This document shows, piece by piece, positions 24,199 through 64,000 of a stretch of 64,000 bases of DNA. The notes under the pieces are model-generated. The model had not been told where the DNA came from and made no database searches. It was given only the letters and a program-made list of their open reading frames with translations. How positions within the stretch are numbered: the stretch's first letter is position 1; every line of letters begins with the position of its first letter. The DNA comes from Candidatus Algichlamydia australiensis (GTDB lineage Bacteria; Chlamydiota; Chlamydiia; Chlamydiales; JAJFMI01), in NCBI GenBank assembly GCA_033977065.1, contig JAXCHI010000004.1, forward strand, positions 1 through 64,000, in the 5' to 3' direction. The position numbers and the translations under genes were made by a program.

Positions 24199-24252
24199 TT
24201 AAAAAAGCGAGATGGCAAGTTCGAAAAAGACGAAGGCCGTAAGAAAAAAAAG
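24199..24252 (-). repeat. Orphan tyrP 3' tail, copy C
   Basis: Translates LTAFVFFELAISLF*; the 20-bp core agttcgaaaaagacgaaggc is shared with 26808 and 27641. Confidence 0.85.
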
Positions 24253-24344
24253 GGTGCCTTCAAATGAACTTTCGCCGATTTTTCGGCTCAAAAAAGCTGA
24301 AAAATCGACTGAATTTTAATTCGAAGAGATCCTTTAAAGGTTTC

Positions 24345-61359: not shown

Positions 61360-61411
61360 ACCTGCTCCCCAAAAAATTCAGGGAATGTGACGTACTGGTA
61401 CGTTAAAGCAT

Positions 61412-64000
61412 TTACTCTTGAATTTTGCGGAAGTCAAGCAGTTCTTCAAAGCGGGCAAATACTCTTTGCAAGAGCGCCAGGCGATTTTCTTGTGTCTTGG
61501 GATCATCTGCTAAAATTTTCACATTATCAAAGAGGTCAGCAAGAGGGGTTTTGAGTGTTGCAAGGAGTGAAAAGGCACCAGCGTAGTCGCGCTCTTTGGG
61601 CCAATTGTTTGCAATTTGGGAGAGCTGTTTGGCGAGCTCTTTTTCTTGCGGTTTTTCAAAAAGAGATTCGTTAAGTGTGTACTGAGGCTTATTTTCTAGC
61701 TGACCTTTGGCGCGCTTGAAGACTTCAAAGAGTTTGCCAAAGTCTTCACCGGAGCGAAACTCGTGCAGCGCTTTGATTTTACAAAATTGATCGTAGGGGT
61801 CGGTCAGTTTGCCTTGCAGTGCGGCTTCAATTTCATCTCCCTTGTAACCCAGCTCTTCGTAGACCGATTTGGCACGGGGGAGCATGAAGGAGAGAATTTG
61901 ATCGATCAGCTCTTTTTGATTGTGCGGATGGCCTTTGAGTTGCGGGAAGGCGTTTGAGGCATCAAGAAGAAGGTCAGGCAAGTTGCAGGAAATTTTATGG
62001 GTAATAAGAATTTTTAGGATACCGATCGCTTGGCGCCGCATGGCGTAAGGATCGGAGGAGGAGGTCGGTTTAAGACCGACAGAAAAGTAGCCGAGCAGGT
62101 TGTCCATTTTGTCAGCGAGACTAAGGGCGGTGCCGGTGGGAGATTGGGGTAGCGTGCCATTTTCGGTTTTAGGGAGGTAGTGCTCTTCGATTGCTTGGGC
62201 GACTTCAGCATCTACGCCCTGTTTTTCAGCATAGTGGCGGCCGATCACACCTTGGAGTTCAGGGAACTCCCCAACAAGTTCAGAGACAAGGTCGTTTTTG
62301 CAAAGAGTTGCGGCCTGAACGGTTTTTTCTTTTTCTCCCATAGGAAGTTTTTCTACGATCTGACGCAAGCGCTTGACTTTGTCATGCAGTGAACCCAATT
62401 TTTCTTGGAAAGTGACATTTTTGAGACGTTCGCTCCACTCCTTTTCTGCAGTTTGCAGGTCGGTCTCATAGAGAAAGAGGCCGTCGGAGAGACGCGCAGA
62501 GAGGACTGCCTGATTATTTTTAATGATCTGGTCGTTCACTTTGTTGTCAGCGACAATCACAAAGCGATTTTGCAGGTTGCCCTTTTCATTTGCGATTGGA
62601 AAGTAGCGCTGATGGTTGACCATTTCGCAAATCTGTACGCTATCGGGTGCGCGTAAGAAACTCTCATCATAGGTCGCTTCTGCAATTTGCGGAAATTCGG
62701 AGAGGTGGAGTACTTCGCGCATCACGCGATCTTTTGCTACAATACTACCAGAAATTTGAGAGAGCTGCTCTTCAATCGATTTTTCCCGCTCGTTCACATC
62801 GGCGAGTACTTTTTGTCTACGCAATTTCGAGAGGTACTCGTCAGGGGACTTGATCACGATCTCTTTGGGCGCGAGTTGGCGGTGGCCATAAGTTTTTTGT
62901 CCTGCGATCAGATGGGCGAGAGTAAAAGGAACTGTTTCTGTTCCAAAGAGGGCGATCAGCCAATGGATTGGGCGAGCAAAGGCCAAGTCAGAAGAGCCCC
63001 AGCGCATTTTTTTAGGAAATTGCATGCTGCTAATCGCTTTGGGCAGCTTTTCAAACAAAATTTCTGATGTGGCGCGGCCAGGCTCAGAGAGAGTGGCGAT
63101 GAGGTAGCCGTCCTTTTCAGTTAGATTTTCTTGGGCAAGAGCTTCAGATTTTTTGCATCCTTCAAGGCCAATCGATTTTAAAAATCCTGCGCCCTGTTTT
63201 GTCGGCGCGCCTGCCTCATCAAAAGCGGTGTTTACAGAGGGGCCACGTCGCTCCTTGCTGGTCGCGCTTTTTCCTTCTTGCAGCTCGTGCACAATTACGC
63301 TTAAGCGGCGAGGGGTACCAAACACTTTGATCTCTCCATAAGAGAGCTTTTCCTCTTTCAAAAGAGTGGTGATAACGCGCTTGATTTCGCGCATCCCAAT
63401 GGGCACAAAAGTAGCTGGTAGCTCTTCAGAGCCAATTTCGATAAGAAAATCGCGTTTGCCTTCGGGATTGTACTTGCCAGGAGTAAATTGGGAGGGAGCA
63501 AATTTTTCTTTATGCATCTCTGTGGCAAGAGGAAAGTGCATCGCTTCGCGCTTTTCTAAATAACATTTTGCTGCAGCAAAAGAGAGATCGCGTACGCGAT
63601 GAATATAGCCGGTACGCTCGGTGACAGAAATAACGCCGCGCGCTTCTAACATGTTGAAGGCGTGTGAGGCTTTCATTACGAAATCGTAGGCGGGGATGGG
63701 CAGTTTTTTTTGGGTAAGGTTGTGCGCCTCTTTTTCAAAGTCGTTAAAATGGCTCTTCCACATCTGGGGGTTCGATTGCGTAAAGTTGTACTGGCTCCAT
63801 TCGACTTCATTTTCATGGTAGACATCGCCATAGGTCAGCTCCTTGCTGTAGCGCATATCAAAGAAATTATCTACGCCTTGTGCTAACATGCAGATGCGCT
63901 CGAGGCCATAAGTAATTTCTACAGGGATTGGGTCCATGGAAAAACCGGCGACCTGCTGAAAATAGGTAAATTGTGTGACCTCCATGCCATCGATCCAGAC
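61412..64000 (-). CDS. glyQS: Glycine--tRNA ligase, fused alpha+beta (chlamydial GlyQS); 5' part outside the window
   Basis: VWIDGMEVTQFTYFQQ and EITYGLER (alpha) continue in frame into LIEIGSEELP, TPRRL, EFPELQG (beta). Confidence 0.96.
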   Translation of the reverse strand, partial: VWIDGMEVTQFTYFQQVAGFSMDPIPVEITYGLERICMLAQGVDNFFDMRYSKELTYGDVYHENEVEWSQYNFTQSNPQMWKSHFNDFEKEAHNLTQKKLPIPAYDFVMKASHAFNMLEARGVISVTERTGYIHRVRDLSFAAAKCYLEKREAMHFPLATEMHKEKFAPSQFTPGKYNPEGKRDFLIEIGSEELPATFVPIGMREIKRVITTLLKEEKLSYGEIKVFGTPRRLSVIVHELQEGKSATSKERRGPSVNTAFDEAGAPTKQGAGFLKSIGLEGCKKSEALAQENLTEKDGYLIATLSEPGRATSEILFEKLPKAISSMQFPKKMRWGSSDLAFARPIHWLIALFGTETVPFTLAHLIAGQKTYGHRQLAPKEIVIKSPDEYLSKLRRQKVLADVNEREKSIEEQLSQISGSIVAKDRVMREVLHLSEFPQIAEATYDESFLRAPDSVQICEMVNHQRYFPIANEKGNLQNRFVIVADNKVNDQIIKNNQAVLSARLSDGLFLYETDLQTAEKEWSERLKNVTFQEKLGSLHDKVKRLRQIVEKLPMGEKEKTVQAATLCKNDLVSELVGEFPELQGVIGRHYAEKQGVDAEVAQAIEEHYLPKTENGTLPQSPTGTALSLADKMDNLLGYFSVGLKPTSSSDPYAMRRQAIGILKILITHKISCNLPDLLLDASNAFPQLKGHPHNQKELIDQILSFMLPRAKSVYEELGYKGDEIEAALQGKLTDPYDQFCKIKALHEFRSGEDFGKLFEVFKRAKGQLENKPQYTLNESLFEKPQEKELAKQLSQIANNWPKERDYAGAFSLLATLKTPLADLFDNVKILADDPKTQENRLALLQRVFARFEELLDFRKIQE

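Follow-up and report, generated by a model that had tools for sequence, protein, structure and literature searches.

Repeated 3′ ends of core genes behind accessory DNA in a chlamydial genome: probable scars of additive gain from diverged relatives

Repeated Gene Ends in the Window

The stretch of DNA analyzed here (the window; 64,000 nucleotides, C4:1-64000, contigs being denoted by C and a number) belongs to the genome of Candidatus Algichlamydia australiensis (G000), a member of the Chlamydiota with an assembly of 1.80 Mb in 7 contigs, a GC content of ~0.42 and 93% completeness. Within this window the 3′ ends of three core genes, namely a tyrP-like permease gene, the primase gene dnaG and the glycyl-tRNA synthetase gene glyQS, recur downstream of the respective gene, with accessory DNA separating the intact gene and its attached end from the second, orphan end. 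A sequence-only reading of the window had described these repeated tails and had attributed them to an integrase-free, integron-like system of acquired cassettes. The closest DnaG sequence (91% identity) came from a metagenome-assembled genome (MAG) labeled ‘Chlamydiae bacterium’, followed at ~50-55% by MAGs labeled Simkaniaceae or Parachlamydiales. The sister genome G001 was used as outgroup, and G002, a further relative, was used in site comparisons. The features of the tyrP locus are as follows (ORF, open reading frame; HTH, helix-turn-helix):

27622..28788, minus strand: tyrP-like tryptophan/tyrosine permease, host gene (Pfam Trp_Tyr_perm, E 2e-104)
27617..27716, minus strand: attached tyrP end, copy T (repeat families D12 and D15, by alignment)
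26948..27674, plus strand: HigB-like ORF (26948-27301; Pfam Gp49, 1.7e-15) and HigA-like ORF (27294-27674; HTH_37, 4.9e-26)
26784..26883, minus strand: first orphan tyrP end T′1, in frame and with its own stop codon, 90.8% identical to T over 76 nt
24345..26651, minus strand: 768-amino acid protein with no Pfam family, between orphans T′1 and T′2 (ORF and Pfam scan)
24194..24252, minus strand: second orphan tyrP end T′2, ~18 codons and a stop (family D12, 73-76%; in-frame translation)

The tyrP repeats are spaced at 833 and 2590 bp. T′2, although short and more diverged, can still be translated in frame into a tyrP-like terminus closed by a stop codon of its own; it is the older of the two orphans. 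Between the attached end and T′1 lies a HigBA-type toxin-antitoxin pair, in which a small Gp49/HigB-like toxin ORF overlaps the HTH antitoxin ORF by 8 nt. The higA-like ORF, on the opposite strand, also shares 53 nt with the tyrP end (27622-27674), an overlap that is preserved in the sister genome (L101, G001:C22).

At the dnaG/glyQS locus the following features were found:

53865..55613, plus strand: dnaG primase, host gene (Pfam Zn_ribbon_DnaG, DNAG_N, Toprim)
55369..55881, plus strand: repeat unit A, the final 245 nt of dnaG and most of DCC1-like gene a (55604-55921) (blastn)
55987..56586, plus strand: orfX, 199 amino acids, GC 0.31, with a predicted membrane anchor and coiled coil (sequence prediction)
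56906..57418, plus strand: repeat unit B, the orphan dnaG end (56906-57150) and the intact DCC1-like gene b (57141-57461)
57662..58969, plus strand: orfX′ (57662-58306) and orfY (58355-58969), between the orphan dnaG and orphan glyQS ends
58982..59117, minus strand: orphan glyQS end including the stop codon, 94.1% over 136 nt
59255..60922, minus strand: ankyrin-repeat protein, 555 amino acids, GC 0.33 (Pfam Ank_2, 4e-21)
60965..61357, no strand given: two ~170-nt dispersed repeats of the small non-coding mobile-element type, between the ankyrin gene and the glyQS stop
61412..63985, minus strand: fused glyQS glycyl-tRNA synthetase (Pfam tRNA_synt_2f, 2.3e-178), its ORF in the contig running to 64387

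The core of the dnaG repeat (55369-55668 versus 56906-57205, spacing 1537) is 94% identical, and blastn extends the pair to 513 nt (55369-55881 versus 56906-57418) at 91.6%. The DCC1-like gene overlaps the dnaG stop codon and the repeat spans nearly the whole of it, so that two intact DCC1-like genes are present. At glyQS the attached end (61412-61547) and the orphan are 94% identical with a spacing of 2430. The arrangement is nested: the orphan dnaG and orphan glyQS ends bracket DCC1b, orfX′ and orfY. All three tails lie where the sequence-only reading had placed them and at the spacings it gave, and the DNA between the copies is AT-rich as it had said (GC 0.31-0.34 versus 0.42 in the genome). 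The orphan dnaG end has stayed open as an 80-amino acid DnaG C-terminal piece (56908-57150) overlapping the DCC1b start, as in the native arrangement.

Divergence Between Attached and Orphan Ends

The copies differ mostly at synonymous sites, in agreement with the earlier description. Over 80 codons of dnaG there are 11 synonymous and 3 non-synonymous changes (ratio of non-synonymous to synonymous rates, dN/dS, 0.06), over 44 codons of glyQS 7 and 1 (0.03), and over 30 codons of tyrP (T versus T′1) 11 and 3 (0.06); the DCC1 part of the dnaG repeat adds 20 and 9. Pooled over the three gene ends, 29 synonymous changes stand against 7 non-synonymous ones at a nucleotide identity of 83-94%. The non-synonymous fraction estimated for an orphan that had been dead or neutral since an in-place duplication is ~43%, versus the 7 of 36 observed (binomial p 0.003). 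When changes at dnaG, DCC1 and glyQS were assigned with G001 as outgroup, they split 20 versus 19 between the copies, and the copies there share 94% identity with each other and 74-78% with G001. Given this even split and the closeness of the copies to each other relative to the outgroup, both must until recently have changed at the pace of a functional gene, and they are best described from these patterns as orthologous alleles and not as duplicates in decay.

At the dnaG locus, orfX and orfX′ are homologous with only 26% amino acid identity (E 3e-11) and, because they sit beside flanks that are 92% identical in nucleotides, look like two alleles of a fast-evolving gene and not like a recent local copy. 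The differences between copies of the gene ends fall in patches between identical blocks of up to 124 nt, and the copies therefore have exchanged sequence by gene conversion. A uniform identical 5′ block, the sign of a true target duplication next to the crossover, was found in four loci and was absent in others, and this feature was set aside for want of a consistent pattern.

Survey of the Whole Genome

After comparison of the genome with itself, direct repeats of at least 50 nt lying less than 20 kb apart were retained if one copy lay at the 3′ terminus of an ORF no shorter than 150 amino acids and the other fell outside any comparable ORF. The results showed that the arrangement recurs well beyond the window: 15 host genes carry 16 orphan ends, and all 16 orphans lie downstream of the gene. 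The repeats measure 59-513 nt, and 0.63-6.1 kb of DNA with a GC content of 0.31-0.39 separates the copies. The host genes are mostly housekeeping genes. Outside the window they are:

Pyruvate dehydrogenase E1; CDP-alcohol phosphatidyltransferase; icd; sdhB; a RecD-like helicase; nqrA
An MptE-like protein; an EamA transporter; an NDH-2-type oxidoreductase; a pentapeptide-repeat protein; one protein of unknown family
An acyltransferase-type E2 beside icd, named from a recognized sequence motif and not from a Pfam scan

For 14 of the 15 host gene ends no other copy exists in the genome, nor, dispersed repeats apart, does the accessory DNA recur at the nucleotide level. Its products outside the window include ankyrin proteins, a Fic protein, a GNAT acetyltransferase, a ricin-type lectin-like protein, a DUF4135 protein and unknowns, and one 6-kb interval holds lipid-metabolism genes. 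When the same pipeline was run on 80 dnaG-centered loci of other genomes (975,929 bases), one gene-end case was obtained, which given short single-gene windows allows only a rough comparison of rates.

Across 15 pairs, third codon positions account for 219 of the 313 differences (p 8e-40) and the pooled dN/dS is 0.106, with the synonymous divergence (dS) per locus ranging from 0.16 to 1.87. Together with the near-equal split against the outgroup, these values bear out the proposal that the spare ends were shaped as functional gene termini in other lineages. Since three orphans contain an in-frame stop codon and the sdhB orphan has lost one cysteine of its iron-sulfur motif, the orphans are decaying, if only slightly. 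A ‘head’ class, in which a gene start is repeated upstream, gave eight rows (pooled dN/dS 0.43), about four of which were judged to derive from dispersed repeats; it was set aside as too mixed to bear on the model either way.

Short and Empty Sites in Relatives

The sequence-only reading had called for relatives with empty or different sites, and at four loci short or empty ones were found. The distance from DCC1 to glyQS is 5.5 kb in G000 versus ~0.9 kb in G001, where the interval holds one unrelated 129-amino acid ORF; dnaG and glyQS are also convergent neighbors in three more distant genomes. The EamA and NDH-2 genes are 3.9 kb apart in G000, 0.9 kb apart in G001 and adjacent in G002, icd and E2 are ~4.8 kb apart in G000 and adjacent in G002, and the interval at sdhB is 4.0 kb in G000 versus 0.3 kb in G001.

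The tyrP locus is not as clean. G001 also carries a HigBA pair behind tyrP, but without an orphan there, and the homology between the two genomes ends exactly at the 5′ boundary of T′1 (26883); the 768-amino acid protein was not found in the corresponding G001 region. With G001 as outgroup, T′1 has 9 changes versus 3 for T, and T′1 is therefore either older or from a more distant lineage. Because the same pair lies behind tyrP in the sister species, HigBA is not a recent private gain, and the direction and order of events at tyrP are ambiguous. The core inference of the earlier reading is supported, with HigBA as one correction to it.

Two metagenome scans for a donor or close relative were also made. 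With orfX′ as query there were 88 pattern matches, none of them confirmed, and with the C-terminal 149 amino acids of DnaG there were 2 loci, only 38-39% identical.

Junctions and Interleaved Loci

The 5′ boundaries of the orphans are sharp and their 3′ boundaries are at or near the stop codon. At two loci outside the window the parts follow one another in this order:

C4:185901-190201: EamA end, 177-amino acid ORF, orphan NDH-2 end, orphan EamA end, 894-amino acid ankyrin gene, NDH-2 end
C3:75092-80220: icd end, 1019-amino acid gene, orphan E2 end, orphan icd end, 299-amino acid gene, E2 end

At the first locus the orphan NDH-2 and orphan EamA ends abut with a 4-nt overlap, a microhomology at the sole junction for which both parental sequences are readable; at the second the orphan E2 and orphan icd ends are 30 nt apart. 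Both loci consist of two stacked units with unrelated accessory genes and, judged from the order of their parts, would represent two versions of one core-gene interval in tandem, with a single novel junction running from the inside of the far gene to the inside of the near gene. Tandem stacking of two interval versions predicts just such abutting orphans of both flanking core genes. The orphan EamA end has stayed open as a 115-amino acid C-terminal half (G000:C4:187028-187375).

This topology is also that of an in-place tandem duplication, running from inside a core gene past its neighbor and followed by divergence or loss of the accessory genes, with the ends kept alike by gene conversion. 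The 4-nt microhomology would suit such an event, orfX/orfX′ and the genes P1/P2 are true paralogue pairs, and identical blocks of up to 124 nt attest to conversion. However, a dead orphan should have gathered non-synonymous changes, contrary to the pooled dN/dS and to dS values reaching 1.87, and the branches at dnaG, DCC1 and glyQS are equal in length. In addition, the accessory genes of the units are unrelated at most loci, their DNA has no second copy in the genome, and a gene end with its DCC1 neighbor at 92% nucleotide identity stands next to an orfX pair at 26% amino acid identity. We therefore regard duplication in place as unlikely.

Recombination Machinery

Integrative elements that target gene 3′ ends and supply a replacement end would leave an identical geometry, and the loci might be remnants or satellites of such elements whose integrase has been lost or acts in trans. 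The low GC content of the accessory DNA, and its toxin-antitoxin, Fic- and ankyrin-type genes, are typical of islands. Against this stand fifteen different target genes and the lack of a shared motif at the 14 orphan boundaries compared (mean longest common k-mer 5.38, versus 5.27 +/- 0.10 in shuffles). Only two tyrosine recombinases (PF00589; 294 and 312 amino acids) were found, one on C6 and one at C3:599516, neither of them near any locus or in the window, and their number and size mark them as putative XerC/XerD-like proteins. No serine recombinase (PF00239) was found in the 93%-complete genome, and Pfam detected no recombinase, recombinase fragment or transposase among the window ORFs or 15 accessory proteins from outside the window; restriction-modification domains were likewise absent from these proteins. 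No tRNA-type attachment site is present at the window loci, since the only tRNA of the window, a tRNA-Ser at 19384, lies outside them, and the window yielded 0 matches when scanned against Rfam with gathering scores as the cutoff. Finally, units at two loci end in a piece of the far flanking core gene, which is unexpected for a site-specific element. Taken together, an origin from integrative elements is quite improbable, and the loci can be called integrase-free, as had been proposed, in that neither a dedicated integrase near them nor a common att-like motif was detected.

RecA and a ComEC-like gene are present in the genome, and Ku, a sign of end joining, was sought in the same incomplete assembly and not found. 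ComEC-dependent DNA uptake and lateral transfer are reported for Chlamydia trachomatis (PMC6686042).

Read-Level Check of the Assembly

The sequence-only reading had named strain-mixing assembly chimeras as a possible source of the duplicated tails. In such an artefact, the versions of a variable locus from two co-occurring strains would be placed in series as a false ‘haplotype’ duplication. Two public runs, X1 and X2, from one study labeled ‘dinoflagellate metagenome’, both contain the window stretch; they may be the genome’s own source, which makes them a check on the assembler and not an independent sample. Logan unitigs of X1 match the window with 0 mismatches at a depth of 11.6-14.2 that is even across the dnaG/glyQS locus. 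Unitig 55732-56985 crosses the junction from orfX to the orphan dnaG end at 56906, bridging it by 79 nt, unitig 57269-59099 runs from DCC1b into the orphan glyQS end, and unitig 59088-61026 begins 30 nt inside that end and spans the ankyrin gene. A strain-mixing chimera at this locus is argued against because two strains with simple loci give no such junction words.

On window positions 53000-64000, 65 of 136 X2 contigs resemble the window at only 90-99% (38 at 95-99% and 27 at 90-95%), and related variants of the bacterium thus seem to co-occur in the sample as possible donors or alternative versions of the locus. The X2 depth of 435-2871 is summed over contigs of several variants and is uninterpretable, and the run contigs on the window list no joint between repeat copies, which, as contigs drop rare variants, is uninformative on excision. 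The metagenomic type of sample, with its co-occurring variants, thus lends the artefact some plausibility, as does the nested layout at dnaG/glyQS, which is what an inserted variant contig would give. Nevertheless, the novel junctions are held in X1 unitigs at the depth of their flanks, at the one locus checked, and pairs only 76-84% identical would not co-assemble. An assembly artefact accordingly appears very unlikely.

Other Features

Several further observations concern stacked or repeated sequences in this and related genomes. At G000:C3:147146-153794 (L114) two paralogous ~670-amino acid genes share 24-48% amino acid identity over most of their length and 91% nucleotide identity over the last 112 nt, and between them lies a second copy (87%) of the following gene's start; by its layout this would be a stacked-unit locus whose large gene is itself the variable part. 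In another chlamydial MAG (L026; region 6609-10278), the stretch upstream of dnaG and the dnaG start are partially copied just behind dnaG (6609-6924 versus 9276-9570, 91%; 7214-7309 versus 10183-10278, 98%), an order of parts that hints at comparable stacking at dnaG in this distant relative. Contig C1 (87,402 bases, GC 0.376), which has a lower GC content than the rest of the genome and may be a plasmid, contains a 2.7-kb paralogue (75.6%) of the 658-amino acid host gene at C3:9494-11470.

Dispersed repeats of ~170 nt lie directly behind gene ends at glyQS (60965-61357), the second TpsA-like gene (38390-38558) and uvrC (48962-49086), with copies elsewhere in the genome that are 84-99% identical. 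One dispersed-repeat family overlaps the start of a 231-amino acid ORF (C2:397745-398440), which may be a candidate transposase. The window also holds, at 29543-43665, three tandem TpsA/filamentous-haemagglutinin-like genes with TPS secretion domains (29543-34357, 34505-38401 and 38611-39873), whose 5′ regions are 63-78% identical and whose last codons are conserved; the third has a single in-frame TGA (39871-39873), after which the same frame resumes as an ORF at 39925-43665.

Discussion

We consider it probable that the repeated gene ends are scars of additive gain from diverged relatives, made by a homologous anchor and an illegitimate join or by the equivalent single crossover of a circle, and that they do not belong to an integron-like system. 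A fragment from a related chlamydial lineage, at 6-19% nucleotide divergence, would bring a conserved gene end together with its own accessory DNA. Its conserved part would pair with the resident gene, and its far end would be joined illegitimately to the resident chromosome inside the end of the same gene; alternatively, the fragment would first circularize and then integrate by one crossover, with identical topology. In either case the gene would keep one complete end, the incoming accessory DNA would follow, and the second end would be stranded before the older downstream DNA. Repeated events would stack alternative interval versions between core genes and push older ends downstream, as may have happened at tyrP with its two orphans. 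Both routes had been named by the sequence-only reading, and both fit the geometry, including the two loci where pieces of both flanking genes abut; the linear and the circular route are inseparable with the present data. We infer the donor lineages, the route of DNA entry, which is possibly ComEC-type uptake during sharing of a host cell, the identity of the resident copy, and the linear or circular intermediate.

Several observations weigh against this account. There is true paralogy between some units (orfX/orfX′ and P1/P2 at C3:147146-152340), and the nested, not interleaved, arrangement at dnaG/glyQS needs two events, one anchored in each gene. At tyrP the HigBA pair is common to the sister species and the T′1 branch is the longer one (9 versus 3). 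Gene conversion between copies blurs their history, and in four pairs the longest identical run is just 17-23 nt, which is little for RecA to pair on unless the anchoring stretch was situated farther upstream within the gene. The read check covers one locus with 31-mer unitigs, which cannot phase the copies, and an excised circle coexisting with a simple locus is countered solely by the even depth. No donor genome was found in the two metagenome scans, and the comparison had one same-genus genome.

A bolder version would have co-resident Chlamydiae use gene-end homology for exchange without a recombinase, the stacked units forming an ‘allele bank’ whose ends release circles that re-enter cells, in a reversible cassette economy that needs no integrase. 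The patchy identity between copies indicates that attached and orphan ends do interact; even so, we hold such an economy to be a speculative and improbable extension.

Insertion hotspots often hold accessory genes without a mobile-element gene, and the route by which these arrived is usually invisible. At the loci described here, stranded and synonymously different ends would record the arrival, in that the incoming DNA brought a working copy of the end of the neighboring core gene and the donor was therefore a relative, while at two loci a complete second version of the interval would have joined the resident one without replacing it. Fifteen scars, or 8 per Mb, in the 1.8-Mb genome of an obligate intracellular bacterium suggest that exchange among related chlamydiae is a main source of their host-interaction genes (ankyrin, Fic, toxin-antitoxin). 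Once more strains are sequenced, such scars can serve as simple sequence markers for finding donors and measuring rates of gain.

Comparison With Known Systems

With integrons the loci share accessory genes stacked in series at a fixed chromosomal place. However, there is no intI, no attI/attC-like common site and no common promoter logic, and the loci are many and scattered; the integron-like, re-excising system that had been proposed is not supported, as neither machinery nor a common site was found. Prophage e14 in E. coli icd is an integrative element that restores the 3′ end of its target gene with a replacement end. In contrast to elements of this type, no integrase or excisionase was found here in the window, among the accessory proteins or near the loci.

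The nearest parallels to the present loci are insertion with long target duplication and the orphan arrays ascribed to homology-facilitated illegitimate recombination. Insertion with long target duplication is said to have been described by Nobusato et al. in 2000. In the sections of Furuta, Abe and Kobayashi (2010; PMC2853133) considered here, genes lie between direct repeats of 46-423 bp that are a single sequence in insert-free genomes, with no transposase or integrase. The repeats often overlap a gene 3′ end, the species are mostly naturally competent, and the mechanism is left open; the cases were screened for restriction-modification genes, and most repeats are near-identical and are read as target duplications. 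By the criteria stated in those sections, the present loci are alike in having direct repeats of more than 30 bp around an insert of less than 20 kb, in a repeat that is a single sequence in an insert-free relative (at four loci), and in the lack of mobile-element genes in the insert, although small dispersed repeats do adjoin glyQS. Relative to the same sections they differ in that restriction-modification genes are replaced by ankyrin, Fic, GNAT, toxin-antitoxin and unknown genes, in that the copies are synonymously differing orthologous alleles, and in that the far flank takes part in the junction at two loci.

Homology-facilitated illegitimate recombination is the model on which Kirchberger et al. 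(2017; PMC5361080), in the part of the article relevant here, based the formation of orphan arrays at type VI secretion system (T6SS) and Rhs loci, referring to de Vries and Wackernagel (2002) and Prudhomme et al. (2002). As set out there, one conserved anchor and one illegitimate join add foreign DNA and displace resident DNA downstream, and repetition builds arrays without the need for a recombinase gene; the present loci would be alike in both respects, and their orphan and attached ends, as orthologous alleles, supply the anchor, the process here being known from sequence alone. At T6SS, Rhs and contact-dependent inhibition (CDI) loci, as that text presents them, variable toxin tips and immunity genes are displaced, whereas here the displaced pieces are conserved ends from the permease, primase, tRNA synthetase, icd, sdhB, nqrA and other genes, next to unrelated accessory DNA. 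Campbell-type insertion-duplications and transformation-generated merodiploids have the same topology of tandem units joined at one novel junction; those are laboratory or self-DNA events with identical repeats, whereas units from diverged lineages would here be fixed in a natural genome. Merodiploids of this origin are treated by Johnston et al. (2013; PMC3784515). The principle is already known, and what makes the present loci valuable is not a new mechanism but how densely the cases occur and how clear they are: they add their sheer number, two interleaved junctions, sites that are empty in relatives, and a clear synonymous signature indicating that one copy of each end arrived with the insert.

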